Assembly: GCF_014202315.1 (NCBI RefSeq)
Contig: NZ_JACHGN010000001.1
Location: forward strand, 21,757-85,756
Direction of reading: 5' to 3'
From: Thermocatellispora tengchongensis
GTDB lineage: Bacteria > Actinomycetota > Actinomycetes > Streptosporangiales > Streptosporangiaceae
DNA length: 64,000 nt
In this document: piece by piece, positions 7,602-30,968 of the stretch
Layout of the letters: each line of letters begins with the position of its first letter
How positions within the stretch are numbered: the stretch's first letter is position 1
Notes under the pieces: generated by a model
Databases searched by the model: none
Seen by the model: the letters and a program-made list of their open reading frames with translations, nothing else
What the model was told of the DNA's origin: nothing
Translations under genes and position numbers: made by a program

Positions 7602-8207
7602 TCACAGCCAGCCGTTGTGCCTGGCCACGTGCACCGCCTCGGTGCGGTTGCGGGTGCCGGTCTTGCCGATGCAGGACGACAGGTGGTTGCGCACGGTGCT
7701 CTCGGACAGGTGCACCCGGCGGGAGATGTCGGCCACGGTCGCGCCGTCGGCGGCGGCGAGGAGCACGTCGCGCTCGCGTGGGGTGAGCGGGCTCGGCCCC
7801 GCGCTCAGCGCCGCCGCGGCCAGCGCCGGATCGACCACGGTCTCCCCCGCGAGCACCCGGCGGATCGCCCGCGCCAGCTCCTCGACCGGGCCGTCCTTGA
7901 CCAGGAAGCCCCTGGCCCCGGCCTCCAGCGCCCTGCGCAGATAACCGGGCCTGCCGAACGTCGTCACGATCAGCACCGCGCATCGCGGCAGCGCGGTGCG
8001 CAGGGCCGCCGCGGCGTCGATGCCGCTCATGCCGGGCAGCTCGATGTCCAGCAGCGCGACGTCGGGCCGCTCGCGCAGCGCCGCGGGCACGATGGCGTCG
8101 CCGTCGCCGACCTGGGCGACGACCTCCATGTCGTCCTCCAGGTCGAGCAGCACGGCCAGCGCACCGCGCATCATGCCCTGGTCCTCGGCGATGAGCACCC
8201 GGGTCAT
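7602..8207 (-). CDS. two-component response regulator, NarL/LuxR family
   Basis: Receiver domain (LIAEDQ...D...LLDIELPGMSG) plus a LuxR HTH (LTPRERDVL...TVRNHL). The start ATG overlaps the kinase stop (ATGA). Confidence 0.9.
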   Translation of the reverse strand: MTRVLIAEDQGMMRGALAVLLDLEDDMEVVAQVGDGDAIVPAALRERPDVALLDIELPGMSGIDAAAALRTALPRCAVLIVTTFGRPGYLRRALEAGARGFLVKDGPVEELARAIRRVLAGETVVDPALAAAALSAGPSPLTPRERDVLLAAADGATVADISRRVHLSESTVRNHLSSCIGKTGTRNRTEAVHVARHNGWL

Positions 8208-9394
8208 GCGGAGTACTCCGGCGCAGGGTGCGGGATCTCCGCGATGAGACGGAAGCCGCCGCCGAGCGGCGCGGCGTCGAGGCGTCCGCCCGAGGCGGCC
8301 AGCCGCTCCCGAAGCCCGCGCAGCCCGCTCCCGGCCCCGACGTCGCGGGACGTGCCGGCACCGGCAAGGGGCGCGCCGGGCGTGGCGCCGCGGCCGTCGT
8401 CGCTGATCTCCACCCGGATCGGGTCGGTCTCGCGGTGCAGCGCGATGTGGCAGCGGCTCGCCCTCGCGTGCCGTACGACGTTCGTGACGCCCTCGCGCAC
8501 CACCCAGCCGAGCAGTGCGTCGGCCTCGGGCGACAGCGCGGGCCCCGACTCGCTGACCACGCACTCGACCCCGGCCGCGGCGAGCACCGACCTGGCCCGC
8601 TCCAGCTCCAGCGCGAGCCCGGCGTCGCGGTAGCCGGTCACCGCCTCGCGCACCTCGCGCAGCGCCTCGCGGCCGATCGACTCGATGTCGGCGGCATGGG
8701 CGGCGGTGGCCCCGGGATCGCGCGGGGCCAGCCTGCGCGCGGCCTCGGCCTTCACCACGATCACGGACAGCGTGTGCCCGAGCAGGTCGTGCAGGTCACG
8801 GGAGAAGCGCAGCCGCTCCTGCGCCACCGCGGCGCGGGCCAGCTCCTCGCGGGTGCGGTCCAGCTCGGCGACGATCGCGCCGAGCCGCCGGAACCCGTAC
8901 ACCGTCAGCCCGGCCAGCAGCGGGGTCAGCCCGGCGCCGAACAGCGCTTCGGCCGGCTGGCTGCCCCGGGCCAGCATCAGCACCGTGGCGGCCAGCGCGA
9001 CGGCGGCCACCGCCCAGGGGGCCGCGCGCGGTCCGAGCACGGTCCCCACGGCGAGGGAGAGCATGGTGTAGAGCATGACCCAGCCCTCGCCCGGGAAGGC
9101 GGCGGTCGCGGCGAGCGTGATCAGCGCCAGCACGCCCGCCGCGTACTCGGGTCGTGCCAACCGGACCAGGCGCGGCAACCGGAACGGCAGCGGCTCGCTC
9201 CCGCCGAGCACGGCCGCGGCGTACGCGGCGAGCGCGGCGGCCAGCACCGGCCATCCGGGCCACGGCGTCTCCGCGGCGCTGACGGCCGGGGCCAGGGCGA
9301 GCAGCGGCGCCGACGCGATCGGCGCCCAGGTGACCATCCGCCCGTCCGCCCACGACGCGCAACCGCCCGCCCGTTCCACTGCCATGGCACTCAT
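8204..9394 (-). CDS. sensor histidine kinase (DesK/NarX-like, HisKA_3)
   Basis: N-terminal TM helices, then an H-box (RLRFSRDLHDLLGHTLSV) and an HATPase_c domain (GxGLxGLRER). It is co-oriented and coupled with the response regulator. Confidence 0.9.
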   Translation of the reverse strand: MSAMAVERAGGCASWADGRMVTWAPIASAPLLALAPAVSAAETPWPGWPVLAAALAAYAAAVLGGSEPLPFRLPRLVRLARPEYAAGVLALITLAATAAFPGEGWVMLYTMLSLAVGTVLGPRAAPWAVAAVALAATVLMLARGSQPAEALFGAGLTPLLAGLTVYGFRRLGAIVAELDRTREELARAAVAQERLRFSRDLHDLLGHTLSVIVVKAEAARRLAPRDPGATAAHAADIESIGREALREVREAVTGYRDAGLALELERARSVLAAAGVECVVSESGPALSPEADALLGWVVREGVTNVVRHARASRCHIALHRETDPIRVEISDDGRGATPGAPLAGAGTSRDVGAGSGLRGLRERLAASGGRLDAAPLGGGFRLIAEIPHPAPEYSA

Positions 9395-9861
9395 TCTGGG
9401 CGGGCCTCCGCACCGCTCACAACAGCGCTCCCCGCGGCCGGGCCCGCCGTGTCACGCACCACCGCGCCGCTCACGACGGCGCTGATCGCCACCGCGCCGA
9501 CGCTCAGGTGCATCGCGACCAGGGTCGCCACCGCCGCGGGCGTGACCGCGCCGAGCGTCGGGACCAGCGAGCCGATCACCGTGACCACCGCGACCACCAG
9601 CCAGATGGTCCGGGCCCGCTGGGGGAACAGCCGTCGCAGCACCGCAAGGACGCCGAACCCGGCCAAGCTGAGCACCAGGCTGCTCACCACGATGCCGGGC
9701 ACGCCCACGTTCAGCGCCTCCGGCCCGGTGCCGACCGTGAGGTCCACCCCGGCCCCCGGCACCGCGACCGCCCACACCACGAGGGGCGCGGCCACGGAGC
9801 CCGCGACCCCCGCCGCCACCCCTCGCCACCGGAGCCCTCCGCCCGCCGCCTTCTGGGTCAT
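9391..9861 (-). CDS. small integral membrane protein (4 predicted TM)
   Basis: 157 aa, strongly hydrophobic. Its stop overlaps the histidine kinase start, which makes it a likely third component of the two-component system module. Confidence 0.7.
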   Translation of the reverse strand: MTQKAAGGGLRWRGVAAGVAGSVAAPLVVWAVAVPGAGVDLTVGTGPEALNVGVPGIVVSSLVLSLAGFGVLAVLRRLFPQRARTIWLVVAVVTVIGSLVPTLGAVTPAAVATLVAMHLSVGAVAISAVVSGAVVRDTAGPAAGSAVVSGAEARPE

Positions 9862-10139
9862 CACCGTTCTCCCCCTTCCGTCTCGTCGTCCCGACGACCG
9901 TACGAACGGGGCGCGCGTGAGCGGCAGAGCCGGATGTCGTCTCTTGACCAGGACAAATCACCTGGGTCCCGGCCCTTCCGGGCAGCGGGTGGGGGCGCAT
10001 CGGAAACTTGGCGCCTTGACAGCACCGAAACTACAAGCAGGTGATTTGAGTGGCGGACTTCTACAGAGAAGCCGGGCCGAACAGAATGAGAATCTGGTAA
10101 TGTCCAAATGGCATCACGGCTTGCCTTCCCCGAGAGCAT

Positions 10140-10156: not shown

Positions 10157-10408
10157 TTCCACGATGCCGCTCCGAGCCGACGCACACGTGCACAACACAT
10201 CGGTCCCGGCCCGCCGAAGCCGCCAATCCGTCCGCGGCGCCACATCGGCCCGCCGGCACCGCCGCACCATCTGAGGTGCTACCAGGCGTCACCGTTTCGG
10301 ATAGTCCTTATCGCACCGTAAGTGATAATCACATTTGACGCCGAAAAGCCCAATTATTCATGTTCATTACCTTCCCAGCAGATCACCGTAGGTCTAATAT
10401 CAGGGTTT

Positions 10409-11632
10409 GTGTCTCGGCATGCGGCGGATTTACCGGACAAGCAAGTATGGCCTCCGAGTGGCAGCGACGCCTCGCCCGGACATTCCCTTGACCATGCCTC
10501 CGATCATGACTTCGATCAGGTCCTGACGTACGACTGGGCCGGCGACGCGGAACCCGTACCCGCGATCGAATGGCGAAAGATCATTGTTTTCGGGTCGGCG
10601 CTGGCCGCGCTCGCGGCGGTGGGCGCGGCGGGGGCGGCCGTACTCCTCACCGCCGAACCGCCCGCGGCCCGCAGCCCCGTCGCGGGCGCCGCCCCCGCAC
10701 CCGGCCGGGCCGCCCCCGGCCCCGCGACCGCGGCCTCGGCCTCGCCCTCGGCCTCGCCCGGCGTACGGGCCCAGCTCACGCCGGCCCAGGCGGCGCGGGT
10801 CCACGACCGCTTCCAGCGCGGGCTGTCCGCCGCCCAGGCGGCGATGGACGCCGAGGCGATCGGCCGCTACGAGCACGGCCTGGCGCTGGAGATGACCCGG
10901 GCGGGCATCGAGACCGCGCGGATGCGGGGAGAGAAGGTGCCGGCCGGGATGTGGCCCAAGCCGCGCGTGTGGGTGCCGCGGCACGCCGAGGGCCGCCCCG
11001 ACTGGTTCGTCGCCGTCTCCCACGAGCCCGGCGTGGCGCGCATCAGCGACGTCATGGAACGTACGCGCGCCGGGTGGCGGCTGGTCGCCTCGGCCGCCGA
11101 CACCCGGGCCACCCCGGAGCCGCTGCCCGCCATCGCCACCGACGCCGCGGGATACGCCACCAGCCTGTCCCAGGACGCGACCGGGCTGCGCGGCACCCCG
11201 CGCCAGATCGTCCGGGCCCACCTGGCCGCCCTGCGCGGCATGCGCGAGGACCCGCGCTTCGCCGACGGCCCGTGGACCGGCGCGGCCGTGCGCTTCTGGC
11301 GCGCGGAACGCGACCGGCTCGAACGGGCCGGCTGGCGGCTGTCCCTGTCGTACATACAGGAAGGACGAATACGCGCGCTGAGGACCGCCGACGGGGGCGC
11401 CCTCGTGTGGTACTCCGCGCGCTCCACCGACACGCGTACGGCCGAGCGGCCGGGCGCCCTGGTGAAGCTGAAAGGAGCGGCCGCGGTACGAACCGCGGAC
11501 AAGTCGTTCGCCCGCTGGGCGAGCGCCACGTACGGACGGATGTACGTCGCGTACATACCACCCGCCGGTTCGGCCGAGCGTGTCCGCGTGATGGGGGAGT
11601 GGACCGATCTCTTGGAGAGCGACGGCGCCTGA
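10409..11632 (+). CDS. hypothetical membrane-anchored protein
   Basis: GC3 becomes strongly biased only from about 10560, and there is one TM helix (IIVFGSALAALAAVGAAGAAVLL). The only in-frame start codons are GTG at 10409 and GTG at 10322, so the start is uncertain. Confidence 0.6.
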   Translation: MSRHAADLPDKQVWPPSGSDASPGHSLDHASDHDFDQVLTYDWAGDAEPVPAIEWRKIIVFGSALAALAAVGAAGAAVLLTAEPPAARSPVAGAAPAPGRAAPGPATAASASPSASPGVRAQLTPAQAARVHDRFQRGLSAAQAAMDAEAIGRYEHGLALEMTRAGIETARMRGEKVPAGMWPKPRVWVPRHAEGRPDWFVAVSHEPGVARISDVMERTRAGWRLVASAADTRATPEPLPAIATDAAGYATSLSQDATGLRGTPRQIVRAHLAALRGMREDPRFADGPWTGAAVRFWRAERDRLERAGWRLSLSYIQEGRIRALRTADGGALVWYSARSTDTRTAERPGALVKLKGAAAVRTADKSFARWASATYGRMYVAYIPPAGSAERVRVMGEWTDLLESDGA

Positions 11633-11658: not shown

Positions 11659-13224
11659 ATGGCGAGATCATCGAGACGACCCGCACGCGCCACAGTGATC
11701 ACGGCCGGTGCCGCGCTGGGAGTCTTCGCACTGGGCGCCGGGCTCGGCGTCGTCGTCTCCGGAGGCTCCGAAGGCACGATGCGGCTCGCCGCCGGCACAT
11801 ATCGGCTGGACGACGACGGCCGGCTCCTCACCACCGAGCCTCCCGCCTCGGAGCAGGAGGCCGCGCCCCTCTCCGACGCCGACATGGGCAGCACGATCAC
11901 GGACGCCGCGGATGACGAACGCGTCTGCCTGACCACGACCACCGACGGCCGGGCCGTCGGCTCCTCCGGACGCGACTGCACCCCGCTGCCGTTCGTGGGC
12001 GGTGCGGCGGGCGCGTTACGCCCCGGCAACCCCAAGCATCCCCCACGCCCGACGGCGACCCCCAGCGCGACGGGCAGCCCCACCGCCACCCCCAGCGCGA
12101 CGGGCAGCCCCACCCGCACCCGGACGGCCCCGCCGTCCCCCCGCCCGACGCCCACCATGACGGGCACGCCCCGCCCGAGCGCGCCGCCCACGCGCACGCG
12201 CACGCCGGCCCCGACCGCCAGCCCCAGGCCGTCCACCACGGCGACCGGGTGCGTGCTGCGCGCGCCCAACGGGGTCGCGCTCACCCCGGCCATGCCGCAG
12301 AGCGGCAACGGCGACCGGGGCCGGCCGCGGCCCACCGGATGCCCGGCGCCCACGACGTCCGTGAGCGCGAGCACCGGCGTGACCCCCACCGCCCCGGGCA
12401 CGCCGACCCGCGACGGCGGCAACCGCGAGATCCTGCCCCCGCGCACCCCCGACGCGCCCCCCACCCAAGCGCCCCGCCCCGGCGCGCCGACCGCCGACGC
12501 ACCCGGTCCCGGCGCACCCACCGCCGACGCACCCGGCCCCGGCGCACCCACCGCCGACGTCCCCGCCCCCGCGCCCAGCGCGGGTGACGGGAGCCGCGAC
12601 GTGGTCCCGCCGACCACGCCCAGCCAGGCGCCCACCGGCAGCCCCTCGCCGGGCACCGAGGGTGGCGGCGACGGGGCGGACAGCCTGCCGGTGTTCCGCG
12701 ACCCCGAGCTGCTGCGGCGGGCGTACGAGGCGCTGGGCATCGGCACGCGCGACTACATCGACGAGAACGGCGTGTGGGACCTCAACGTGGCGCCGCCCGG
12801 CACCCCGCCGTGCCGCGACTACACCGAGGAGGAGCTGGAGCGCCTGCGCGAGCAGGCGGGCGACCGGGGCCTGCCCACCGGCGTGATCCCGCGCGACTCG
12901 TGCCTGTGGCCGGCCTTCATCCGCTGGCTGCTCGCCGACCCGGCGCCGGGCGAGGTGAGCAACTGGACCAAGTTCACCGGCCTGCCGGACCGGAACCTGG
13001 ACATCGAGGTCGTCGATCCGGCGAGCCCGGCACCCGTCGCGACGCCGGCCGTCCCGGCGCAGGAGGTGCCACAGGCGCCGGATCGGCCCGGCGACGGCCG
13101 TGACGACGGCCGTGATGACGGCCCCGACGACGGCTACGGGCGGCCGGAAGGCTACGAGGAGGGGCAGGTGAACGGGTTCGGCCGGGACGAGGCCGGGCCG
13201 GATGGTCCGGGATTCACGGAATGA
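11659..13224 (+). CDS. secreted Pro/Thr-rich repeat protein
   Basis: ATG at 11659 with a GGAGAGGAG RBS, a signal-peptide-like N-terminus, PTATPSATGS x2 and APTADAPGPG x3 repeats, and an acidic C-terminal tail. Confidence 0.7.
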   Translation: MARSSRRPARATVITAGAALGVFALGAGLGVVVSGGSEGTMRLAAGTYRLDDDGRLLTTEPPASEQEAAPLSDADMGSTITDAADDERVCLTTTTDGRAVGSSGRDCTPLPFVGGAAGALRPGNPKHPPRPTATPSATGSPTATPSATGSPTRTRTAPPSPRPTPTMTGTPRPSAPPTRTRTPAPTASPRPSTTATGCVLRAPNGVALTPAMPQSGNGDRGRPRPTGCPAPTTSVSASTGVTPTAPGTPTRDGGNREILPPRTPDAPPTQAPRPGAPTADAPGPGAPTADAPGPGAPTADVPAPAPSAGDGSRDVVPPTTPSQAPTGSPSPGTEGGGDGADSLPVFRDPELLRRAYEALGIGTRDYIDENGVWDLNVAPPGTPPCRDYTEEELERLREQAGDRGLPTGVIPRDSCLWPAFIRWLLADPAPGEVSNWTKFTGLPDRNLDIEVVDPASPAPVATPAVPAQEVPQAPDRPGDGRDDGRDDGPDDGYGRPEGYEEGQVNGFGRDEAGPDGPGFTE

Positions 13225-15158
13225 ACACGCCCACCGGAGCCGGCAACGTCGTCCTGGGCGAAGGGGCGGCGTGGGTGAGCGAGCACGGCGCCCACCTGAT
13301 GGACTACGCCGGGCACCACCTCGGTCCCGAGCAGGCGCTCTCGGCGGTGGGCGGCACGCTGGCCGCGTGCCTGCGCCGCCCGATGCCCGGCGACGCCACG
13401 CCCCGGGCGCGGCTGCTCGCCGTGCTGCGCCGCGAGTGCCGCGTCCTCGGCACGGGACCGGAGCGGGAGTACGTGCCCGGCACCGGTCCCGGCATGCCCG
13501 ACGCCGAGGTGATCGAGCGCGGCTGGACGCTGGCCGAGCCCCTGGGCACCGAGGCACTGCGGCTGATGTACCGGCACGGGCTCGGCCCCAAGGACCTGGC
13601 CTACGTGCTCGCGCTGCCCGAGCGCGACGTCGGCAGGCTGGTGACCAGGACCCAGGACCTGGTCGAGACGCTGGTCAGCGGGCTGGATGCGATCCAGCAC
13701 GGGCGGCACGCGTGCGCGGCGCTCGAACCGCTGGTCAACATGCTGTTCTCCGAGGAGTACGGCCCGCGCCGCCCGGCCGAGTTCGACGCCGACCGCGCGG
13801 CCCTGCTCAGCCACCTGGCCGAGTGTTCGGTGTGCACTCGGCCGATCTCCATCCGCTACACGGTCCCGCAGATGATCTCCCATCCACCGGTCGCGCCACT
13901 GTCCGCCGAGGTGCGGGAGCGGCTGCTCGCCCGGCTGCCGGCCACGGTGCAGCGCCCGACCGTGGTCCCGCTCACCGACCCCCTGCCGCCGCCCGCGGCG
14001 TCCGGCACCCCCGGCCCCTCTGACGGCGAGGGCGGCCCGGAGGAGATCACGCTGCCCAACATCGAGGCCGGCCTGCCCCCGGCCCCCCTCCGGCCGGGAC
14101 AGGACACGCCGCTGTACGACGCGCTGCTGTCCCAGGTGTGGGCCCGCGAGGTGCTGGCCCGCACCGAGAATCCCCCCGCCAGACCGGGCACAACGCCAGG
14201 CGCCCAGCCCCCCGCCAGGCCGGCGCAGCCGCCCGCCTTCGGCCACGGACCCGTTTCCGGCTCGAACCCCGCTCCCGCGCCCACCCACCCCACCCCGCGG
14301 GAGCAGGAGTTCGAGATCCCCCTCCCCGCCCCGGTCCTCCTGCCTCCCGGCGAGCGCCGGCAGGACCGGGGCGGGGAGGCACGGAGCGCCTTCTGGGACG
14401 GAGACTGGGACGACGAGGACTGGGGCGGGAAGGACTGGGGCGACGACCCGACCGTGGAGTTCAGCGCGGTCCCACGCCGGCCGCACGACCCACCGCCCCC
14501 CGAGCCGCCCGCCGCCGCCCCCGAACCGCACCGAACGCGAACCGGCCTACGTACCGGCGAGCGAACCGGCGAGCGAACCGGCGAGCGAAGGGGCGAACGA
14601 ACCAAGGGACGCAGTGGGGACCGGGCCGCAGGCAGGACCCGCACCCGCTCGCGGCTCGTGGCGCGCCTCGGCACCACGACCGTGAAGATCACCGTCATCG
14701 CCGTCGCGGGCACGGCCGGCGTCTGGACCGGCATCAACCTGCTCGGCCCGGCGATCGAGACCGCGCCCCCACTGAACCCCCCGGGGTCGGCCGCCCCCTC
14801 GGGCCCCGGCACCCTCGCCGGAGCGGGGTCCGGGACCGGGCCGGGAACCGGCGCGCCGGTGGGCCCGGCACCGCTGTCGGTGCCACCGGAGGTGACGCTG
14901 AACGACTACGGCCAGGGCACCATGCGCCTGACGCTGGCGGACGAGGACGCCGGCCCCGCCGACTGGCGGATCGCGGCGCCCGGCCTGGTCGCCGAGCCGT
15001 CCAGCGGCACGCTGAAACCCGGCCGGACCCAGGTGGTCACGCTACGGGCGCTGCGCGTCCGCCACTGGTGCGGCGCCCCGGCCCCCGTCACCGCGCCGCT
15101 GACCCTGTACGGACCGAAGGGCTCGGCCACCACGTCGGTGCGCTGGAGCACCTGCTGA
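13221..15158 (+). CDS. membrane protein with sigma-70 region-4-like HTH and anti-sigma-type zinc finger (HxxxCxxC)
   Basis: ATGA overlap with the upstream gene. LGPKDLAYVLALPERDVGRLVTRTQDL resembles sigma region 4, and SHLAECSVCTRP is a zf-HC2 motif. A Pro-rich linker, one TM helix near residue 500, and an extracytoplasmic C-terminal domain follow. Confidence 0.7.
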   Translation: MNTPTGAGNVVLGEGAAWVSEHGAHLMDYAGHHLGPEQALSAVGGTLAACLRRPMPGDATPRARLLAVLRRECRVLGTGPEREYVPGTGPGMPDAEVIERGWTLAEPLGTEALRLMYRHGLGPKDLAYVLALPERDVGRLVTRTQDLVETLVSGLDAIQHGRHACAALEPLVNMLFSEEYGPRRPAEFDADRAALLSHLAECSVCTRPISIRYTVPQMISHPPVAPLSAEVRERLLARLPATVQRPTVVPLTDPLPPPAASGTPGPSDGEGGPEEITLPNIEAGLPPAPLRPGQDTPLYDALLSQVWAREVLARTENPPARPGTTPGAQPPARPAQPPAFGHGPVSGSNPAPAPTHPTPREQEFEIPLPAPVLLPPGERRQDRGGEARSAFWDGDWDDEDWGGKDWGDDPTVEFSAVPRRPHDPPPPEPPAAAPEPHRTRTGLRTGERTGERTGERRGERTKGRSGDRAAGRTRTRSRLVARLGTTTVKITVIAVAGTAGVWTGINLLGPAIETAPPLNPPGSAAPSGPGTLAGAGSGTGPGTGAPVGPAPLSVPPEVTLNDYGQGTMRLTLADEDAGPADWRIAAPGLVAEPSSGTLKPGRTQVVTLRALRVRHWCGAPAPVTAPLTLYGPKGSATTSVRWSTC

Positions 15159-15196: not shown

Positions 15197-16381
15197 ATGA
15201 CCGAGCTATCCCCCCGTACGCAGTCGAACCACTCCTCCCCCGCCCACGCGGCCCCGCCTCTCGGCGAACACCCCGTGGCCAAACAGCCCACCGACACACA
15301 GCTCACCAACACACCGTTCACCGACACCCCGCTGATTGACGCGCCGCTCACCGGAAAGGCGCCCGCGCACGCGGCGCCGTCCACGCCTACGCCCACGCCA
15401 CCGTCCACGCCCGCGTCCGGTCCGGGCCACGCGCCGGTGGACCAGTTCACCGACCCGGTGCCGCTGACCGCCGAGCACCTGCTCACCAACCGGCGCCCCG
15501 AGCCCGCGGGCGGGTGGCGGCGGATGGTCTGGCTGCTGTCCGGCAAGCGGATCATCCCCGGCGAGTCCGCCGCCGAGATCGAGCGCCGCATGCTCATCGC
15601 CCAGGCTCAGATCCCGGTCGCCAGCGGCCACCACCGGATCGCGGTGATGAGCCTGAAGGGCGGCGTCGGCAAGACCACGACCACCGCCGCGCTGGGCAAC
15701 ACGCTGGCGTCGCTGCGCGGCGACCGGGTGATCGCGGTGGACGCCAACCCCGACCGGGGCACGCTCGGCCTGAAGGTCAAGTCCGAGACCGCGGCCACGA
15801 TCCGCACCCTGCTCGCCGAGGCCCCGAACATCGCACGGTACGCCGACGCCCGCGCCTTCACCTCGCAGTCGCCGGCGCGGCTGGAGGTCCTGGCCTCCGA
15901 CACCGACCCCGCGGTGAGCGAGGCGTTCAACGCCGACGACTACCGGACGGTGGCCGGGCTGATCGAGCGCTACTACTCGATCTGCATCACCGACTGCGGC
16001 ACCGGCCTGCTGCACGGCGCGATGGGCGCGACCCTGGAGCTCGCCGACCAGATCGTGCTGGTCAGCCTGGTCGCCGTGGACGGGGCCAGCTCCGCCGCCG
16101 CGACCCTGGACTGGCTGACCGCGCACGGCTACGGCGAGCTGGTCAAGAACGCGATCGTGGTGCTCAACGCCGTGGAGCCGAAGTCCGACGTGGACCTCAA
16201 CCTGCTGGAGCGCCACTTCGACCAGCGCTGCCGCACGGTGATCCAGGTGCCGTTCGACCCGCACCTGAAGGAGGGCGCCGAGGTGGACCTGCTGCGGCTC
16301 AAGCCCGCCACGCGGGCGGCGTACCTGCGGCTGGCCGCCGCCGCGGGGCAGGCGTTCGGCCGGCCCAAGCGGAGCCACTAG
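15197..16381 (+). CDS. MinD/ParA-family P-loop ATPase with N-terminal extension (Ssd/CpaE-like)
   Basis: Deviant Walker A motif MSLKGGVGKTTTTAALG, an A' motif (VIAVDANPDRG) and a Walker B motif (ICITDCG). The ~130-aa N-terminal extension is Pro/Thr-rich. An RBS (GGGAAAGGA) precedes the ATG. Confidence 0.8.
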   Translation: MTELSPRTQSNHSSPAHAAPPLGEHPVAKQPTDTQLTNTPFTDTPLIDAPLTGKAPAHAAPSTPTPTPPSTPASGPGHAPVDQFTDPVPLTAEHLLTNRRPEPAGGWRRMVWLLSGKRIIPGESAAEIERRMLIAQAQIPVASGHHRIAVMSLKGGVGKTTTTAALGNTLASLRGDRVIAVDANPDRGTLGLKVKSETAATIRTLLAEAPNIARYADARAFTSQSPARLEVLASDTDPAVSEAFNADDYRTVAGLIERYYSICITDCGTGLLHGAMGATLELADQIVLVSLVAVDGASSAAATLDWLTAHGYGELVKNAIVVLNAVEPKSDVDLNLLERHFDQRCRTVIQVPFDPHLKEGAEVDLLRLKPATRAAYLRLAAAAGQAFGRPKRSH

Positions 16382-17130
16382 TGCCCCCGGTCATCGAGGA
16401 CCCCGTGCTGGACTGGGGCCTGCGGCCCCGCCGGCACATCCTCCGCTGGGCGCTGCTCGCGCTCGCGGGGGCGGTCGTCGTGGCCGGGGCCATCTGGCTG
16501 GTCGTCCGGCTGGCGGCGGGCACCTCCGATCCCGCGCCCTCCGAGCCGGCCCCGACCGCCACGGCGTTGACGCTGGCGCGGCCGAGCGCGTACCACGGGC
16601 CCGCCGGATATCCGATCGGGTTCCCCCGTACGGAGCTGGGCGCCGCGTCGGCCGCCGCCGCGGCCCTGGAGGCGGCCTGGACGCTCGACGGCACCGAGGC
16701 CGAGCAGGCCGCCATCCTGTACGCCCCGCCCGAGCAGCACCAGGCCGCCAGGGACGGCGCCCGCGCGGCGGCACGCGACTGGCGCCAGACCCTGGGCCTC
16801 CCCACGGACGGCGACCTGCCCGAGGGCGCCGCCATGCGCACCACCACGATCGGCGTCCAGTGGCGCAAGCGGGCCGACGATCTCGTGCTCGTCTCCGTCC
16901 TGGTGCAGGTCAACGCCACGAAGGGCGTCGAGGACACCGGCGCCACCTACTCCAGCCCGTACGCCCTGAACCTGCTCATGGCCTGGCGGGACGACCTGCG
17001 GGGCGAGGGCCGGGGCGACTGGGTGAACGTGCCCGACACGCAGGCCACCGTCGTACCCAAGGTCGCCCTCCCCGGCACCGACGAGTTCCGCTCCGCGGGC
17101 TGGTACCCCATCGCGGGGCCGGCCCAATAG
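16381..17130 (+). CDS. hypothetical single-pass membrane protein
   Basis: GTG start overlapping the upstream TAG by 1 nt, in frame with ORF 15514..17130. One TM helix (LALAGAVVVAGAIWLVV) is followed by a periplasmic domain. GC3 is high. Confidence 0.65.
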   Translation: MPPVIEDPVLDWGLRPRRHILRWALLALAGAVVVAGAIWLVVRLAAGTSDPAPSEPAPTATALTLARPSAYHGPAGYPIGFPRTELGAASAAAAALEAAWTLDGTEAEQAAILYAPPEQHQAARDGARAAARDWRQTLGLPTDGDLPEGAAMRTTTIGVQWRKRADDLVLVSVLVQVNATKGVEDTGATYSSPYALNLLMAWRDDLRGEGRGDWVNVPDTQATVVPKVALPGTDEFRSAGWYPIAGPAQ

Positions 17131-17155: not shown

Positions 17156-18886
17156 ATGACCCCCCGCAGTTCCTCCCGGCGCCACAAGCTGGTCTCCGGC
17201 CTCCTCCTCGCCGGGGTCTCCGCTACGACCGGCGCGGTCATCGCATATCCGTGGGCCGCCGCGGCCGATCCGGCCTCACCCGAGGCGGCCTTACCCTCGG
17301 GCGTCGAGACGCCCGACCCCACGTCGGCCCCGGCTCCCCAGGAGATCCCCCCGGGGCCGTCCGAGAACGAGGAGCCGACGGACGCCGCGACGGACGAGAA
17401 CACCGCCCCTCCCCCCGAGGAGCAGACCCAGCCCCCCGCGGACGACCCGCCCTCCGCCGAGACACCCACCGAGGCGCCCACCGACACACCGCCGGAGACT
17501 CCCACCGAGGCGCCCACAGAGCCCCCGACCGAGACACCGACTGAGGCGCCGACCGATTCGGAGACGTCCCCGCCCACCGAGACGGCGCGGCCGTCCCTGC
17601 GCCCGACGTACACGCCGCCGTCCAGGCACCGCAACCGCGAGCGCCGCCCCGCCCGTCGCGCCGCCCCCACCCCGGCCCCCTCGACCAGCACGCCGACGGC
17701 CACGACCACCACGCCCCCGAGCCAGGAGCCGATCGAGACACCGACCAATACACCGACCAATACCCCCATCAAGACACCGACCAAGACACCGACCGAGGCG
17801 CCCACCCCCACACCCACCCCCACGCCCACGGGCACGGGTTCCACCGCACCGCCGACCACCTCACCCCCGGCCACGACCGCACCCCCCAAGTCCACCCCGA
17901 AACCGAAGAAGACCCCACCCGCGAAGAAGACCCCGAAACCCAAGACCACGCCGAAGCCCAAGGCCACCTCGAAGCCGAAGCCCACGCCCAAGACGACCCC
18001 CAAGACGACCCCGAAGGCGACGCCCAAGGCGACCCCGAAGGCGACGCCCAAGACCACACCCAAGACGACGCCCAAGACGACGCCCAAGCCCAAGACGGGC
18101 TCCACGGCGGCGCCCACCAAGACCCCGCCCAAGGCACCCCCGAAGACGAGCCCCGCCCCGAGCCCGACCCCGGCACAAACGCAGAGCCCGACACGAACAC
18201 CACCGCAGACGCAGACACCACCCACCCAGGCGCCGCCTCAAACCCAGGCGCCGACGCTGCAGGCGACCCCCACCCCCACGACTCCGCCCACCGTCTCGGC
18301 GTCGCAGCGGGCGACGGTCACCCCCACCCCCACCCCCACCCCCACGACCACGACCACGACCACGACCGCCGGCCCCGTGGGACCGCCGCCGGCGCAGCCG
18401 CAACCCGTGGCGCCCGTGCCGCCGGTGCAGCACCAGCAGGTGCCGCCGGCCGCGGCGAAGAAGGTGCTGCCGATGCCGCCGTTGAAGCGCGCGTCGTCCT
18501 GCCTGCCCTACGACCCGGCGGGCTGCTGGAGCCTGGCCCCGTGGCGGGGCCGCACGGTGTCCGGGATCGCGGCCACCCCGGCCGCGGCGGCCAAGCAGTT
18601 CGCCGAGCCGGCGGGCACCCCGAGGTGGGCCTTCGCGCCGCCGGTCGTGCCCCCGCCGCAGGCGGCCGTCACCCCGACCGCCACGCCCACGCCGACCCCC
18701 ACGACCACCGTGCCCACGACCACTGTGCCCACGACCACTGTGCCCACGACCGTGCCAACGACGACCGTGCCAACGACGACCGCGCCACCCGCCACCACGT
18801 CGGCCAAGCGCGCCGCGCCGCGCGCCGGCTGCTGGTCCTTCAGCCCGTCCGCGCTCTGCGCCAGGTCTGAGGAGCGCCGCCCATGA
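17156..18886 (+). CDS. secreted mucin-like Pro/Thr/Lys-rich repeat protein
   Basis: Signal peptide (LLLAGVSATTGAVIAYPWAAAA), then (TEAPTDTPPE)n and (TPKT/A)n repeat tracts, with Cys-containing C-terminal segments. Confidence 0.7.
   Translation: MTPRSSSRRHKLVSGLLLAGVSATTGAVIAYPWAAAADPASPEAALPSGVETPDPTSAPAPQEIPPGPSENEEPTDAATDENTAPPPEEQTQPPADDPPSAETPTEAPTDTPPETPTEAPTEPPTETPTEAPTDSETSPPTETARPSLRPTYTPPSRHRNRERRPARRAAPTPAPSTSTPTATTTTPPSQEPIETPTNTPTNTPIKTPTKTPTEAPTPTPTPTPTGTGSTAPPTTSPPATTAPPKSTPKPKKTPPAKKTPKPKTTPKPKATSKPKPTPKTTPKTTPKATPKATPKATPKTTPKTTPKTTPKPKTGSTAAPTKTPPKAPPKTSPAPSPTPAQTQSPTRTPPQTQTPPTQAPPQTQAPTLQATPTPTTPPTVSASQRATVTPTPTPTPTTTTTTTTAGPVGPPPAQPQPVAPVPPVQHQQVPPAAAKKVLPMPPLKRASSCLPYDPAGCWSLAPWRGRTVSGIAATPAAAAKQFAEPAGTPRWAFAPPVVPPPQAAVTPTATPTPTPTTTVPTTTVPTTTVPTTVPTTTVPTTTAPPATTSAKRAAPRAGCWSFSPSALCARSEERRP
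17455..18110 (+). repeat. in-frame low-complexity tandem repeats (PTEAPTE... and TPKTTPKATPK...)
   Basis: Visible nucleotide periodicity (gag/acc/ccc/aag/acg units) encoding PT(E/K) repeats inside the 17156..18886 CDS. Confidence 0.6.
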
Positions 18887-19635
18887 TCACCCGCATGTTC
18901 GTACGGACCGCCGCCCTCGCCGCCGTCCTCACGCTGGCCGTGAGCTCCGCCGCGTTCGCCCGTGAGAACGGGACGGCGGTGAGCCCGTGCCCGTCCGGGG
19001 TGGCCCTGGAGGGCTGGGGCGAGCCGGCCTTCTGCGAGGAGTTCGAGACCGTCCTCGATCCGGCGGAGTGGGTGCTGTACGACTCGCCGGGCCACGCGGG
19101 CAACGGCATCCGCTCGCCGGGGCAGGCGTTCATCGGCGGCGGCTCGCTGTTCCTGTACGGCACGGCCGACGGCACCACGGCCGGGATGGCGACCAGGTAC
19201 AGCCAGCCGTACGGCCGGTGGGAGGCGCGCATCCGGCTGTACCCGGGGGCCGGCTCCTACCATCCGGTGGCGCTGCTGTGGCCGGACGGCGGGGGCGGGA
19301 ACGTGCGCAGCGCGACCGGCGAGGAGATCGACTACCTGGAGGTCATCGACGATCCGGAGCGGCAGCGGGCCAACTTCTTCCTGCACGTGGGCGGACGCCA
19401 GGAGCAGGCGCACGCGAACGTGGACATGACCCAGTGGCACACGTACGCGGTGGAGAACACCCCCGACGGCGTGGTCGGCTACCTGGACGGGCGGGAGTGG
19501 TTCCGCTCCTCCCAGCACACCACGAGCCCGATGTCGGCCACGTTGCAGCTCGACTGGTTCCCCGGCGAGGGCACGCCGGGCGAGGCGTGGATGGAGGTGG
19601 ACTACCTGCGCATCTACCGCTCCCCGGCGGGCTAG
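18883..19635 (+). CDS. secreted glycoside hydrolase family 16 (beta-glucanase-like)
   Basis: Signal peptide and the GH16 catalytic motif EIDYLE. ATGA overlap with the upstream gene. Confidence 0.85.
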   Translation: MITRMFVRTAALAAVLTLAVSSAAFARENGTAVSPCPSGVALEGWGEPAFCEEFETVLDPAEWVLYDSPGHAGNGIRSPGQAFIGGGSLFLYGTADGTTAGMATRYSQPYGRWEARIRLYPGAGSYHPVALLWPDGGGGNVRSATGEEIDYLEVIDDPERQRANFFLHVGGRQEQAHANVDMTQWHTYAVENTPDGVVGYLDGREWFRSSQHTTSPMSATLQLDWFPGEGTPGEAWMEVDYLRIYRSPAG

Positions 19636-19651: not shown

Positions 19652-20002
19652 CTAGCTCGATTCCTGGCCGCGATCGTCGGCGAGATCGTCGGCGAGTTCG
19701 TCGGTGAGGAGCAGGTCGCGGCGTACCAGGCCCGAGCGGTACGCGCCCCGCCCGATCATGTGCGCCGCGACCGGGCCGGTGACGAGCTGGAACAGGCCGG
19801 TCAGGGCGAGGATGCCGATGTCGAGCGGGGCGTCGGTGCGCAGGCCGACCGCGACCAGGGTCAGCACCATCCCGATCACCTGCGGCTTGGCGCCCAGGTG
19901 CAGGCGGGACAGGAGGGTCGGGAAGCGGAGCAGGCCGATCCCGGCGGTGAGCGACAGCACCGCGCCGACCAGCAGCAGCGCCCCGGCGACGAGGTCACTC
20001 AT
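19652..20002 (-). CDS. mnhG: Na+/H+ antiporter subunit G (MnhG/MrpG)
   Basis: 116-aa membrane protein with the MnhG-type pattern. It is the last gene of a co-oriented seven-subunit mnh/mrp operon. Confidence 0.8.
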   Translation of the reverse strand: MSDLVAGALLLVGAVLSLTAGIGLLRFPTLLSRLHLGAKPQVIGMVLTLVAVGLRTDAPLDIGILALTGLFQLVTGPVAAHMIGRGAYRSGLVRRDLLLTDELADDLADDRGQESS

Positions 20003-20258
20003 CGGGCCTCCTGATCGCGAACCTGGCCACGGCGACGGAGCCGACGAAGCCGACCAGCGAGACCGCGAGCAGGATCGGCAGCGTGGTGGTGTGCTGGTTG
20101 TAGGCGGCTTCGAGCCCGATGCCGACCACGGTGATCGCGATCAGCACGTCCAGGGCGACCGCGCGGTCCAGCAGCGTCGGCCCGGCGATGAGCCGGACCA
20201 CGGTCAGCGCGGCGGCCACGGCGAGCAGCGCGCCGCAGACGATCACGACGGTGGTCAT
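19995..20258 (-). CDS. mnhF: Na+/H+ antiporter subunit F (MnhF/MrpF)
   Basis: 88-aa protein with 3 TM helices. ATG at 20258 overlaps the MnhE stop, and its own stop overlaps the mnhG start. Confidence 0.8.
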   Translation of the reverse strand: MTTVVIVCGALLAVAAALTVVRLIAGPTLLDRAVALDVLIAITVVGIGLEAAYNQHTTTLPILLAVSLVGFVGSVAVARFAIRRPDE

Positions 20259-20776
20259 GGGGCGGGTCCCTCCTCGGCGAGCAGGCGCCGGTCCTCGGCG
20301 TTGCCCAGCGCCCGGATCACGCGCCGCTCCAGAGCGAGCACGCCGCGCCGTACGCGCTCCAGCTCGCTCTCCGCGCGTACGCCGAGCACGTGGATGTACA
20401 GGGTGGCGGTGGAGCGCCTGACCTCGGTGATCAGGCTGCCGGGCACGGCGCACAGGGCCAGTGCGGTGATGGTCATGGTCAGGTCGGAGCGGGTGCGCAG
20501 GGTGACCGCGATGACGGCGTTGGGCGGCTGCGGCCCGGGGCGTACGGCCTGCCAGGCGACGTTCGCGGCGGAGGAGGCCATGTCGGCGACGAACCAGGCG
20601 AACAGCCGCAGGCAGTGCCAGGGGGAGACGCGGGCGCCCCCGCCGGTGGGCGGCAGGCGCGACAGGCGGGTGAGGCCTGCGGCGAGCACGAGCCCGGACA
20701 CGATGTTGGCCACGGAGACGTTGCCCCACAGCAGCACCCACAGGGCGGTCAGGGTGATGAGCGGCACCGGTCTCAC
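20255..20776 (-). CDS. mnhE: Na+/H+ antiporter subunit E (MnhE/MrpE)
   Basis: About 173 aa with a GTG start overlapping the MnhD stop (GTGA). The N-terminal TM hairpin (LITLTALWVLLWG) is typical of MrpE. Confidence 0.75.
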   Translation of the reverse strand: MRPVPLITLTALWVLLWGNVSVANIVSGLVLAAGLTRLSRLPPTGGGARVSPWHCLRLFAWFVADMASSAANVAWQAVRPGPQPPNAVIAVTLRTRSDLTMTITALALCAVPGSLITEVRRSTATLYIHVLGVRAESELERVRRGVLALERRVIRALGNAEDRRLLAEEGPAP

Positions 20777-22320
20777 GACGGCAGCACCGCCGCGATGTAG
20801 GGGGCGCGGGCGAGGAGTTCCGCGGCGGCGCGGCGGGTGTAGTCGACCATGGGCCCGGCGGCGACGGTGAAGGCGGTGGCGAAGGCGACCAGCGCCCAGG
20901 CCGGGCCGGTCATCGCCGGCGGCGGGACGGCGGCGGTGATCGCGGTGCCGCCGATGCCGCGCCGGCCCTCGATCACCTGGCCCGGCTCGGGCACCTGGCG
21001 GCGTTCGCCCCAGAAGGCCCGGTTCCACACCCAGCAGATCGCGTACAGGGTGAGCAGGCTGGTCAGCAGCGCGACCCCCACCATCGCGTACGCCCCCGCC
21101 GTGCCGGCCGCGATCCCGGCCTGGATCAGCCCGAGCTTGCCGAGGAAGCCCGACAGCGGCGGGATGCCGGCCAGGTTCATCGCGGGGACGAAGAACAGCA
21201 CCGCGAGGGCGGGCGCGACCCGGGCCAGGCCGCCGAGGCGGGTGAGGGAGGTGCTGCCGCCGCGCCGCTCGATCAGGCCGGTGACCAGGAACAGCGTGGT
21301 CTGCACGGTGATGTGGTGGGCCACGTAGAAGATCGCGCCGGCGAGCCCGGCCACGGTGGCGAGGCCGACGCCGAAGACCATGTAGCCGATGTGGCTGACC
21401 AGGGTGAAGGACAGCATCCGCTTGATGTCGGTCTGCGCGACCGCGCCGAGGACGCCGATCAGCATGGTCAGCGCCGCGGCCACGAGCAGCAGGGTGCCCA
21501 GCCGGTCGCCGGGGAACAGCAGCGTCTGGATCCGGATCATGGCGTAGACGCCGACCTTGGTGAGCAGGCCGGCGAACACGGCCGTGACGGGGGCCGGGGT
21601 GGTGGGGTAGCTGTCGGGCAGCCAGGCCGACAGCGGGAAGACCGCGGCCTTGATCCCGAAGGCCACGAGCAGGGTGAGCTGGAGGATCAGCCGTACGCCG
21701 TCGGGGAGCGCGTCCAGGCGCCCCGCGAGCTGGGCCATGGTCAGCGTGCCCGTGGCGGCGTAGCACAGCCCGACCGCGATCAGGAAGATCATCGAGGAGA
21801 CCAGGCTGACCACGATGTACGTCATGCCGGCCCGCACCCGGGCGCCCGTGCCGCCCAGTGTGATCAGCACGTAGCTGGCGGTCAGCAGGATCTCGAACCC
21901 GACGTACAGGTTGAACAGGTCGCCCGCCACGAACGCGTCCGAGACCCCCGCGACCAGCGCGAGGTAGGCGGGGTGGAAGACGGCCAGCGGGGTGGCCTCG
22001 TCCTTGTCGGCGGAGCCCTGGCCGATGGCGTACACGACCACGGCGAGCGTGATCACGCTGGAGATGAGCAGGATGAGCGCGGAGAGCCGGTCCACGACGA
22101 GCACGACCGCGATCGGCACCGGCCAGCCGCCGGGCCGCATGGTCTGCGGGCCGTGGGCGTCGGTCTGGTGCACCAGGACCGCGGCGATGACCACGATCAG
22201 CGCCAGCACGCCGACCGTGATGCCGCGCTGCGTGCGGGCCAGCCGGGGGCCGATGGCCAGCTTGATCCCGGCCGCGAACAGCGGCAGCACCACCGGGAGG
22301 GGCACCAGGGCGTTGCTCAC
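20773..22320 (-). CDS. mnhD: Na+/H+ antiporter subunit D (MnhD/MrpD, NuoN-like)
   Basis: 515 aa, polytopic, with the complex I antiporter-like proton-pumping fold (NADH dehydrogenase subunit N/M family). GTG start overlaps the mnhC stop. Confidence 0.85.
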   Translation of the reverse strand: MSNALVPLPVVLPLFAAGIKLAIGPRLARTQRGITVGVLALIVVIAAVLVHQTDAHGPQTMRPGGWPVPIAVVLVVDRLSALILLISSVITLAVVVYAIGQGSADKDEATPLAVFHPAYLALVAGVSDAFVAGDLFNLYVGFEILLTASYVLITLGGTGARVRAGMTYIVVSLVSSMIFLIAVGLCYAATGTLTMAQLAGRLDALPDGVRLILQLTLLVAFGIKAAVFPLSAWLPDSYPTTPAPVTAVFAGLLTKVGVYAMIRIQTLLFPGDRLGTLLLVAAALTMLIGVLGAVAQTDIKRMLSFTLVSHIGYMVFGVGLATVAGLAGAIFYVAHHITVQTTLFLVTGLIERRGGSTSLTRLGGLARVAPALAVLFFVPAMNLAGIPPLSGFLGKLGLIQAGIAAGTAGAYAMVGVALLTSLLTLYAICWVWNRAFWGERRQVPEPGQVIEGRRGIGGTAITAAVPPPAMTGPAWALVAFATAFTVAAGPMVDYTRRAAAELLARAPYIAAVLPS

Positions 22321-22904
22321 CGGGTGTCCTCCTCCATGGTGGTGTCGATGGCGCGGTCGGGGTCGTCGGCGGCCATCTGGCGCTCCCACTCCGCGCGCAG
22401 CCGGCGCCGGATCTCGCGCCGCTCCTCGCGGACAGCGGCGCGCAGCTCGCGCCGGGCGCGGCGGCCCGCCCGCCGGCCGCGCTCGGCCTCGATGCGCCGG
22501 ACCCGGGCGGTCTCCTCGGCGATCCGGCCCCAGGCCATCTCGCGCTCGGCGCGGGCGATGACCCGGCGGTCCTCCTCGTCGTCGCGCACCTCGTCGTCGC
22601 CGGTGAGCTGCCTGCCGCGGTGCACCAGCGAGAGCAGGAACGCGACCAGGGCGAGCGTGATCACGATGGCGGTGAGGACCATGACCTGCGGCAGCGGGTC
22701 GCCCATCTGGGGCACCGGGGTGACGCCGAGCAGCGGCGCCCCGCCCGGCGGCCCGCCCGCGGCCAGGATGAACAGGTTCACGCCGTTGCCGAGCAGGATG
22801 ACGCCCAGGATGATCCGGGTCAGGCTGCGCTCCAGGATCAGGAACACGCCGCACGACACGAGCGCGGCGATGGCCACGAGCAGCGCCACGGCGGTCCCGC
22901 TCAC
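22317..22904 (-). CDS. mnhC: Na+/H+ antiporter subunit C (MnhC/MrpC, NuoK-like) with an unusual ~90-aa charged C-terminal extension
   Basis: The N-terminal ~105 aa are the canonical 3-TM MnhC fold. The C-terminus is an Arg/Glu-rich predicted helix (RRELRAAVREERREIRRRLRAEWERQ). GTG start overlaps the mnhA stop. Confidence 0.8.
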   Translation of the reverse strand: MSGTAVALLVAIAALVSCGVFLILERSLTRIILGVILLGNGVNLFILAAGGPPGGAPLLGVTPVPQMGDPLPQVMVLTAIVITLALVAFLLSLVHRGRQLTGDDEVRDDEEDRRVIARAEREMAWGRIAEETARVRRIEAERGRRAGRRARRELRAAVREERREIRRRLRAEWERQMAADDPDRAIDTTMEEDTR

Positions 22905-30955: not shown

Positions 30956-30968
30956 GGGACAGAAGCAT

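Follow-up and report, generated by a model that had tools for sequence, protein, structure and literature searches.

In actinobacteria, fusions of an extracytoplasmic function (ECF) sigma factor with a zinc-finger anti-sigma domain and a transmembrane segment have been described in groups ECF48, ECF52 and ECF53 (PMC5826349, PMC8999054). Only one member, SCO4117 of Streptomyces coelicolor (ECF52), has been studied, and regulated proteolysis has been proposed for it (PMC5826349, PMC8999054, PMC7826278). In IutY of Pseudomonas putida (ECF243) a sigma factor is fused to a membrane-spanning anti-sigma factor, and regulated proteolysis was shown experimentally (PMC8999054). The fused sigma/anti-sigma architecture itself is already known and not new. 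Here we analyze a gene of this kind (the target) at positions 13221..15158 of a 64,000-nt stretch of the Thermocatellispora tengchongensis genome (contig NZ_JACHGN010000001.1; the whole stretch is called the window). An original prediction had described its product as a single protein combining a region-4-like sigma segment, an HxxxCxxC zinc signature, a transmembrane helix and a large extracytoplasmic domain. Its central idea, the fusion of sigma-type and ZAS-type (zinc-binding anti-sigma) modules in the cytoplasmic part of one membrane protein, is borne out by the predicted fold and by transitive homology. While the architecture has precedent, the eroded sigma signature and the obligate ParA/MinD-like ATPase partner, described below, have none.

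Like the ECF48, ECF52 and ECF53 proteins, the target carries an ECF sigma domain, a ZAS-like zinc finger, a transmembrane helix, a proline-rich region and a C-terminal folded domain on one polypeptide, and it is likewise restricted to Actinobacteria. For the known groups, control by freeing the sigma part from the membrane has been proposed (PMC5826349, PMC8999054). Standard models (TIGR02937, pfam13490) recognise both the sigma domain and the zinc finger of ECF52 but not those of the target. In ECF52 the Pro-rich region and a carbohydrate-binding module are extracytoplasmic; in the target the Pro-rich part is cytoplasmic and the outer domain is small and Ig-like. Hallmark sigma residues are lost in the target family, and an obligate ParA/MinD-like neighbour is not described for ECF48, ECF52 or ECF53. 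IutY differs from the target in having a FecR-type anti-sigma part and a canonical sigma domain, and in belonging to proteobacterial cell-surface signalling. The target appears to be a degenerate variant descended from the fused sigma/anti-sigma stock, outside ECF52. Its family was probably never collected by the ECF classification pipeline, since general sigma profiles fail on it (PMC7826278).

The open reading frame (ORF) proposed in the original prediction exists and is read as coding because its third-position GC content in its own frame is ∼0.93–0.96, the coding signature in such GC-rich DNA (73–78% GC in the surroundings). Its ATG overlaps the stop codon of the upstream gene B (ATGA). 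The exact 645-aa product is called in two public assemblies. In a third, GCA_042675265.1, apparently of the same species (locus L088, 1679-5885), the target is split into parts of 487 and 158 aa. This assembly is an 11.7-Mb single contig in which genes A, B and the target are each fragmented. Given that the neighbouring genes A and B are also broken there and that all are intact in the two other assemblies, the split is probably a sequencing or assembly error (homopolymer or indel in high-GC repeats) and not a sign of real pseudogenes. The features of the target are as follows.

13221..15158, + strand: whole gene, 645 aa; fused sigma-like/ZAS-like/transmembrane/Ig-like protein
13260..13448, + strand: sigma2-like domain, residues 14-76, three helices
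13449..13502, + strand: linker between the sigma2- and sigma4-like domains, Y-x-P-G-x-G-P-G-M-P-D; P93 invariant, P86, G89, P90 and G91 nearly so; model confidence dips here
13503..13697, + strand: sigma4-like helix-turn-helix (HTH) domain, residues 95-159, four helices; includes segment 13554-13661 of the original prediction
13704..13940, + strand: ZAS-like anti-sigma domain, residues 162-240; modelled helices 168-176, 185-201, 215-219 and 229-237
13713-13715 (C165), 13812-13814 (H198), 13824-13826 (C202) and 13833-13835 (C205), + strand: putative zinc ligands, invariant
13839..13871, + strand: family signature RPI[NS]IRYTVPQ, right behind CxxC; P208, I211, Y213, T214, V215, P216 and Q217 invariant
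13941..14675, + strand: Pro/Ala/Gly/Arg-rich cytoplasmic linker, residues 241-485, 245 aa, of varying length; assigned by composition
14103-14156, + strand: conserved short motif DTPLYDALLSQVWAREVL in this linker; A301 invariant, T296, P297, L298 and L302 nearly invariant
14676..14750, + strand: single transmembrane helix, residues 486-510; Kyte-Doolittle maximum 1.65, the only segment above 1.2
14751..14867, + strand: extracytoplasmic Pro/Gly-rich spacer, residues 511-549, 39 aa; assigned by composition; model confidence (pLDDT) below 50
14868..15155, + strand: extracytoplasmic Ig-like beta-sandwich, residues 550-645, 96 aa; invariant C617 and C-terminal C645

Two alignments of homologues were used, of 37 and 24 sequences. 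The cytoplasmic head of the target spans residues 14-240. An AlphaFold2 model of the head, suggested as a check in the original prediction and computed here from the alignment of 24 N-terminal domains, reached a pLDDT of 88.6 and a pTM of 0.84; it consists of three groups of helices, at residues 14-76 (three helices), 95-159 (four) and 168-237 (four), that is, a sigma2+sigma4 fold plus a helical ZAS-like domain. The top 46 matches in a Foldseek search of the PDB were all sigma-related: 45 were ECF sigma factors or the PhyR sigma-like domain and the remaining one was the RpoE chain of an RNA-guided transcription complex. Target-normalised TM-scores were 0.60–0.65 against the anti-sigma-bound closed complexes RpoE-NepR, SigW-RsiW and CnrH-CnrY, versus ∼0.3 against open holoenzyme forms of sigma. 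On account of these matches and of the higher scores against anti-sigma-bound structures, the head is predicted to have sigma2 and sigma4 both complete and closed up as in anti-sigma-bound structures, with a helical domain behind them that shows a ZAS-type ligand pattern.

The region-4-like segment of the original prediction (residues 112-147, nt 13554-13661) does lie in a sigma4-like domain, but the term ‘fragment’ was wrong, as sigma2-like helices (residues 14-76) precede it. The zinc signature (residues 196-208, nt 13806-13844) proved to be more complete than proposed: H198, C202 and C205 are joined by an upstream cysteine, C165, and all four residues (C-x32-H-x3-C-x2-C) are invariant in both alignments. 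Zinc binding by this set is putative. The target has the sigma2/sigma4 folds in common with the SigR-RsrA, SigL-RslA, SigW-RsiW and SigE-ChrR pairs, as well as an H-x3-C-x2-C motif joined by one more ligand upstream, and it is predicted to adopt the closed sandwich of the crystal complexes that match it best. These pairs differ from the target in being two proteins, with a sigma factor that is free to leave and that keeps the consensus core- and DNA-binding residues.

A search of 1.84 billion representative sequences with the family profile returned 213 proteins, ∼20 of them members of the family itself. Matches beyond the family had E-values of 1e-16 to 1e-4 and were aligned over profile positions ∼20-245, which cover the sigma2, sigma4 and ZAS domains. 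These remote relatives come from Microbispora, Streptosporangium, Acrocarpospora and Rhizohabitans, and several are named sigma factors by NCBI. Among ten that were tested, several had Sigma70_r2 and Sigma70_r4_2 matches above the Pfam thresholds, and two scored 40.7 and 42.5 bits on TIGR02937 (cutoff 42.9). One of them, P0105, shows a weak zf-HC2 match at the position equivalent to the ZAS-like domain of the target, and the head of another, P0104, matches SigL of M. tuberculosis at 2.4e-10 as well as RpoE, CnrH and SigW. P0103, P0104 and P0105 (Microbispora; annotated as ‘sigma-70 family RNA polymerase sigma factor’) follow the same plan of head, tether, transmembrane helix and Pro-rich spacer. 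As in the target, their terminal beta domain ends near a Cys; they align at profile positions ∼20-245 with E-values of 1e-10 to 1e-8. The remote sigma-like relatives, from the same family of organisms, are paralogues of the window gene, which has diverged from them, and the profile links through them show common descent of the target with recognised ECF sigma factors.

Direct profile searches, also suggested in the original prediction, did not reveal this relationship. A Pfam scan of the target protein yielded no family at E ≤ 10. When the 37 homologues were scanned member by member, Sigma70_r2 and zf-HC2 matched none of them and Sigma70_r4 matched only one (E = 0.13); otherwise there were scattered weak matches to generic HTH families. 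The sole NCBIfam match of the target was to RsrA (TIGR03988; residues 190-242) with an E-value of 0.0088 and 16.1 bits versus a cutoff of 62.5, and no NCBIfam sigma model matched it. A search of PDB sequences with the family profile brought up a designed HTH repeat and a chance match to Erv1 but nothing of the sigma or anti-sigma type. The original prediction had named the lack of significant region-4 or zf-HC2 matches as grounds for giving the idea up; formally this is what the Pfam search gave, but structure comparison and transitive homology, which reach deeper, reverse the outcome. The sigma similarity becomes significant only via structure and transitive profile homology. For regulatory folds that evolve fast, the failure of a Pfam search says little as a refutation.

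The residues that a canonical ECF sigma factor uses were compared in an alignment, A4, of five family members, paralogues and three crystallised ECF sigma factors, and were counted in 93 family and 130 remote (paralogous) sequences. Region 2.2 residues of canonical ECF sigma factors bind the beta' clamp helices of RNA polymerase (RNAP). The sites compare as follows.

Region 2.2: canonical AEDvvQEtf..aW (D-x-x-Q-E); paralogues AADAVHDALVAAW; target family AxAAVAxALxAC
Region 2.3 Trp (W64): canonical W; paralogues W in 101 of 112; target family R in 57%, W in 27%
Region 2.4 Asn (N71): canonical N; paralogues mixed R, A and N; target family R in 80 of 91
Recognition helix: canonical GTVKSRLxRAR; paralogues with a mean net charge of +0.46; target family EVGRLATRTQD, RTQD invariant

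No acidic residue is present at the D and E/D positions of region 2.2 in any of the 93 family members, and in A4 the five family sequences have A, S, T or G in the Q column; the core-binding residues of this region are replaced by Ala, Ser or Gly. The recognition helix (residues 134-152) has a mean net charge of −1.41 in the 93 members, with a maximum of 0. In the paralogues, by contrast, region 2.2 still reads D-x-x-[HR]-[DE] and region 2.3 ‘RAWLY’, and the recognition helix is more basic. Their Sigma70_r2 and Sigma70_r4_2 matches exceed the Pfam thresholds, and they have no ParA/MinD neighbour, while for the target the reverse is true.

The ratio of non-synonymous to synonymous substitution rates (dN/dS; Nei-Gojobori method, 60 species pairs) was 0.50 for the head (sigma-like and ZAS-like domains), 0.40 for the Ig-like domain, 0.34 for gene E of the same operon and 0.12 for the ATPase. 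The head evolves ∼4 times faster than the adjacent ATPase; dS is compressed by extreme codon bias, which inflates the absolute ratios, while the contrast between genes holds. Together, the residue losses, the net-negative recognition helix and the dN/dS contrast speak against maintenance of the contacts that a normal ECF sigma factor makes with the RNAP core and with −35 DNA; the fold, the intramolecular partner and the metal ligands are maintained.

The target sits in a co-directional, tightly packed operon of seven genes (A-B-target-D-E-F-G). The other six genes, and their occurrence in the 81 family loci where counted, are listed below.

10409..11632, + strand: gene A, first gene of the operon, 407 aa, GTG start at 10409; DUF8094/SCO2278-lipoprotein-like; 53 of 81 loci
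11659..13224, + strand: gene B, Pro-rich protein anchored in the membrane, C-terminal domain conserved; translational coupling to the target (ATGA); 57 of 81 loci
15197..16381, + strand: gene D, ParA/MinD-like ATPase with a Pro-rich N-terminal extension, directly after the target
16381..17130, + strand: gene E, 249-aa single-pass membrane protein, third member of the triad; one-base overlap with the ATPase gene
17156..18886, + strand: gene F, Pro/Thr/Lys-rich repeat protein; 63 of 81 loci
18883..19635, + strand: gene G, GH16; 49 of 81 loci

The ATPase, which the original prediction had placed correctly right downstream of the target, matches CbiA (4e-11), AAA_31 and the MinD and ParA models, has McdA and MinD among its PDB matches and carries the deviant Walker A motif KGGVGKT; its sequence is 100% identical to that of a T. 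tengchongensis protein. The target, gene D and gene E occur together in all 77 loci, out of 81, that extend far enough. Across genera, the ATPase is 74–91% identical versus 46–66% for the head of the target. None of the inspected neighbourhoods of the remote sigma-like paralogues has a ParA/MinD ATPase. An older pairing of sigma-like gene and ATPase was considered and rejected: the ATPase homologues of Thermomonospora and Nocardiopsis (60–66% identical) lie in a different conserved context, ADH-BPA-ParA, with no sigma-like gene. Because the paralogues lack the ATPase and the nearest outside relatives of the ATPase lack the sigma-like gene, the pairing is specific to the Streptosporangiaceae branch.

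Other products of the operon gave few matches. Gene A matches NF053531 at 4e-15, below the cutoff; DUF8094 comes from precomputed annotation, and our own Pfam scan of the gene A protein found no match. A mechanically called ORF, 10322..11632, starts inside the promoter-like element described below; the 407-aa annotation elsewhere places the start of gene A at GTG 10409. Gene B has no family match and no relatives among PDB sequences, and gene E has no Pfam, NCBIfam or PDB match. Genes B and F consist largely of short tandem repeats (periods of 12–36 nt; PT, PK and TPK-type units) and differ greatly in length between genera, as expected of surface or wall-spanning spacer proteins. The Pro-rich ParA-like ATPase had suggested type VII secretion and an EspI-like role; this idea was dropped, as no component of the type VII secretion system is present in the operon or its flanks. 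No separate ECF sigma gene turned up among ten small ORFs of the window, and no other sigma or anti-sigma gene is linked to the target.

A search of 5.8 billion proteins found 91 full-length relatives of the target, all from Streptosporangiaceae; none has a Pfam domain, and the annotation is ‘hypothetical’ in nearly every case. When species-representative genomes were scanned with the signature RPI[NS]IRYTVPQ, 79 loci were recovered in at least 10 genera (Streptosporangium, Microtetraspora, Microbispora, Planomonospora, Planobispora, Planotetraspora, Nonomuraea, Sphaerimonospora, Spongiactinospora and Thermoactinospora), one syntenic locus per record. The family is confined to Streptosporangiaceae, with one syntenic locus per species-representative genome. 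Its members align in four conserved blocks, namely, the 245-aa N-terminal domain, a DTPLYDALLSQxWARE motif, the transmembrane helix and the C-terminal domain of ∼96 aa. Forty-five residues are invariant among 248 positions, including the four putative metal ligands and two C-terminal cysteines.

The Pro-rich linker is assigned to the cytoplasm because it precedes the only transmembrane helix, which follows an Arg-rich stretch. The DTPLYDALLSQxWARE motif stands out as conserved inside this otherwise variable region. Just ahead of the transmembrane helix, at 14537-14603, lies a (GERT)n repeat (period 12 nt, 5.6 copies), an insertion that the alignment shows in the window protein only. The transmembrane helix was predicted correctly: there is one hydrophobic segment, residues 486-510, which AlphaFold2 also models as a helix and in which A496, G497, G500 and G504 are invariant. 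The ‘large’ extracytoplasmic domain, on the other hand, did not stand up. Only ∼135 residues lie outside, 96 of them folded, and the large low-complexity part (residues 241-485) is cytoplasmic. The AlphaFold2 blocks of the C-terminal domain have pLDDT values of 80–98 and are all beta; Foldseek matches are to PapD, MSP, ASH and other generic Ig-like folds at E ∼1e-5, with no specific ligand-binding family among them. Weak BACON_2 matches appeared in 4 of the 37 homologues, and no profile of a carbohydrate-binding module matched.

A conserved promoter-like element marks the 5′ end of the operon.

10370..10400, + strand: promoter-like element CCTTCC-N12-GT[AC][AG]GTCTAATAT, AT-rich; the start codon of gene A follows 8 nt on

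It lies within a wider conserved stretch (10354-10490 in the window, with a counterpart at 8852-9004 of locus L038). The window has one copy versus 0.01 expected, and 68 of the 81 family loci have a single copy on the + strand, located without exception at the 5′ end, irrespective of which gene heads the cluster. The element can be read as TTCCCA-17-TAATAT, which agrees with the consensus at 8 of 12 positions only; a simple sigma-70 promoter scan reports nothing. Since the start codon follows 8 nt after the element, the operon mRNA would have little or no leader. The element is followed by a conserved N-terminal peptide, M[SY]R[HYW]ASDFP. In Microbispora, Sphaerimonospora and Planotetraspora, which have no genes A and B here, a 37-codon ORF retains M-Y-R-Y-A-S-D-F-P and ends in a TGA that overlaps the start codon (ATG) of the sigma-like gene. 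An RNA motif was also considered and rejected: there was no Rfam match and no conserved structure or covariation. The 5′ element is taken as a promoter, acting at the level of DNA, that is joined to the beginning of a coding region. No further copy of the motif was found elsewhere in the window or in the 81 loci (∼18 kb each), and metagenomes yielded only cluster-linked copies and one chance match. The element neither proves nor excludes autoregulation.

Several neighbouring regions deserve mention in their own right. Genes for a response regulator of the LuxR type, a HisKA_3 histidine kinase and a membrane protein with DUF6069 run divergently from the operon, at 7602-9864 on the − strand; other genera do not conserve this neighbourhood, which is probably unrelated to the operon. 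On the other side, next to the GH16 gene, a complete mrp/mnh-type cation/proton antiporter operon (fused MnhA/B of 948 aa to MnhG) occupies 19652-25747 on the − strand. Three co-directional genes at 30356-37903 encode proteins of 199, 700 and 1624 aa; the largest matches DUF3686 (‘ATPase involved in DNA repair’, E 4e-223), DUF7902 and dynein-type AAA_5, while Pfam gave no match for the two smaller ones. These genes could be a defence or DNA-maintenance module. In Thermomonospora umbrina (locus L089, 8504-15080) a ParA-like homologue adjoins a set of Trypco1, trypsin-VMAP and AAA ATPase genes, followed by a protein of at least 1393 aa with VWA, Sigma70_r2 and Sigma70_r4_2 domains, another unusual sigma fusion.

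The original prediction had left open whether the target is a one-component device, a decoy or a remnant. A functionless remnant is argued against by the data, and a degenerate sigma is favoured over a canonical one. Our preferred reading, which we hold with confidence somewhat short of even, is that the head has ceased to be a conventional sigma factor and, together with the ParA/MinD-like ATPase, serves as a pseudo-sigma/anti-sigma switch module. We prefer it because of the region 2.2 losses, the replacement of Trp and Asn mostly by Arg, the net-negative −35 helix and the ∼4-fold faster evolution relative to the ATPase. The pseudo-sigma/anti-sigma clamp would have been kept as a conformational switch. 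The clamp would be opened, closed or cut from its tether in response to a cue, picked up either by the Ig-like domain on the outside or at the Zn-thiolate site. In place of promoter selection, the switch would act through binding to another protein at the membrane, most plausibly the co-inherited ParA/MinD-like ATPase with its membrane partner. A sigma2+sigma4 fold used as a protein-binding switch without sigma function is found in PhyR of the alphaproteobacterial general stress response, a top structural match of the head. PhyR differs in that it is soluble, fused to a receiver domain, binds NepR in trans and is still seen by sigma-type profiles, whereas the target has no receiver domain, is membrane-anchored and has its anti-sigma-like partner in cis. 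A bolder claim, which we see as rather unlikely, is that the clamp was recruited for a non-transcriptional job: through its open or closed state or its cleavage it would control or position a dedicated ParA/MinD-like ATPase, together with the membrane partner, as part of a system for the envelope or for development that is specific to Streptosporangiaceae. There are several points against the switch reading as a whole. Lost consensus residues do not prove lost binding of RNAP or DNA; highly divergent sigma factors exist, and even the better-preserved paralogues deviate from the consensus (D-x-x-[HR]-[DE]). The closed arrangement, the intact zinc ligand set and the membrane tether are exactly what is expected of a proteolytically released ECF sigma factor. 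A strongly conserved promoter lies right upstream of the operon, as in autoregulated ECF operons, and its geometry can also be read as ACCTTCC-N16-GTCTAA. The ATPase is a putative partner, and sequences resembling the conserved cytoplasmic motif also occur in paralogues without an ATPase neighbour.

A competing explanation is serious, if somewhat less probable: the target may still be a working fused, membrane-tethered ECF sigma factor, like SCO4117 (ECF52), ECF53 or IutY. The ZAS domain would keep sigma2/sigma4 closed, and the freed head would transcribe its own operon from the CCTTCC-N12-GTCAGTCTAATAT promoter. An envelope signal received via the Ig-like domain would lead to proteolysis of the tether or transmembrane helix, or release would occur through zinc or redox chemistry, and the ATPase and envelope proteins would be the regulon. 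The modelled head, with its complete sigma2+sigma4 fold in an inhibited conformation and its invariant ligand set, fits such a protein; so do the long disordered tether, which suits proteolysis, and the homologous paralogues that are annotated and scored as sigma factors. In the lineages without genes A and B the promoter-like element stands directly upstream of the sigma-like gene, and there is precedent for the mechanism (PMC5826349, PMC8999054). An active sigma factor is hard to reconcile with the absence of the region 2.2 acidic residues from every family member (and of the Gln from the A4 sequences), with the net-negative recognition helix, with the fast evolution of the head relative to neighbour genes and with the lack of any Sigma70 profile match for the target protein. 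The promoter fits the housekeeping-type TTCCCA-17-TAATAT reading as well, with the start codon 8 nt downstream, and the distribution of the extended motif makes no regulon beyond the operon visible in the window, the 81 loci or metagenomes.

Much less probable is a decoy, an anti-anti-sigma factor or anti-sigma sink that would act in trans on the paralogous fusions or on free ECF/ZAS pairs in a PhyR-NepR-like manner. PhyR-type sigma-like domains are indeed among the best structural matches, more canonical sigma paralogues coexist in the same genera, and the degeneration pattern resembles that of a mimic that keeps the fold but not the RNAP- and DNA-contacting residues. However, the cis-fused partners are predicted to occupy each other, so that a trans partner would have little surface left to bind; a receiver or comparable switch domain that could free the mimic is absent, and there is no genomic linkage to another sigma or anti-sigma gene. 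Least probable is a decaying, functionless remnant kept merely through its position in the operon. The relatively high dN/dS of 0.50, the lack of profile matches, the middle region that is highly variable in length and sequence, and the gene split into 487 + 158 aa in one same-species assembly could be taken that way. Yet the frame is intact and one syntenic locus is present in each of ∼80 species-representative genomes; this conservation across at least 10 genera, the 45 invariant residues and a dN/dS below 1 argue against a loss of function. Confident AlphaFold2 models of both folded domains were obtained from shallow alignments, and the split, absent from two other assemblies and accompanied by broken neighbours, is the probable sequencing error noted above.

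Fused ‘one-component’ ECF proteins are predicted for several actinobacterial groups and hardly any have been studied. The target family is an extreme case, unseen by standard profiles, probably missed by ECF censuses and annotated as hypothetical almost everywhere. Should its sigma part be active, the family would show how far an ECF sigma factor may drift from the consensus and would come with a ready-made candidate for the cognate promoter. Should the sigma part be inactive, PhyR would no longer be the only case in which a sigma fold has been turned into a protein switch, and the target would be the first such switch tied to a ParA/MinD-type ATPase; a non-transcriptional role of the clamp, if true, would give the sigma/anti-sigma fold an output of a kind not seen before. 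An inactive sigma part would also offer a handle on the uncharacterised envelope operon of the sporangium- and spore-chain-forming Streptosporangiaceae.

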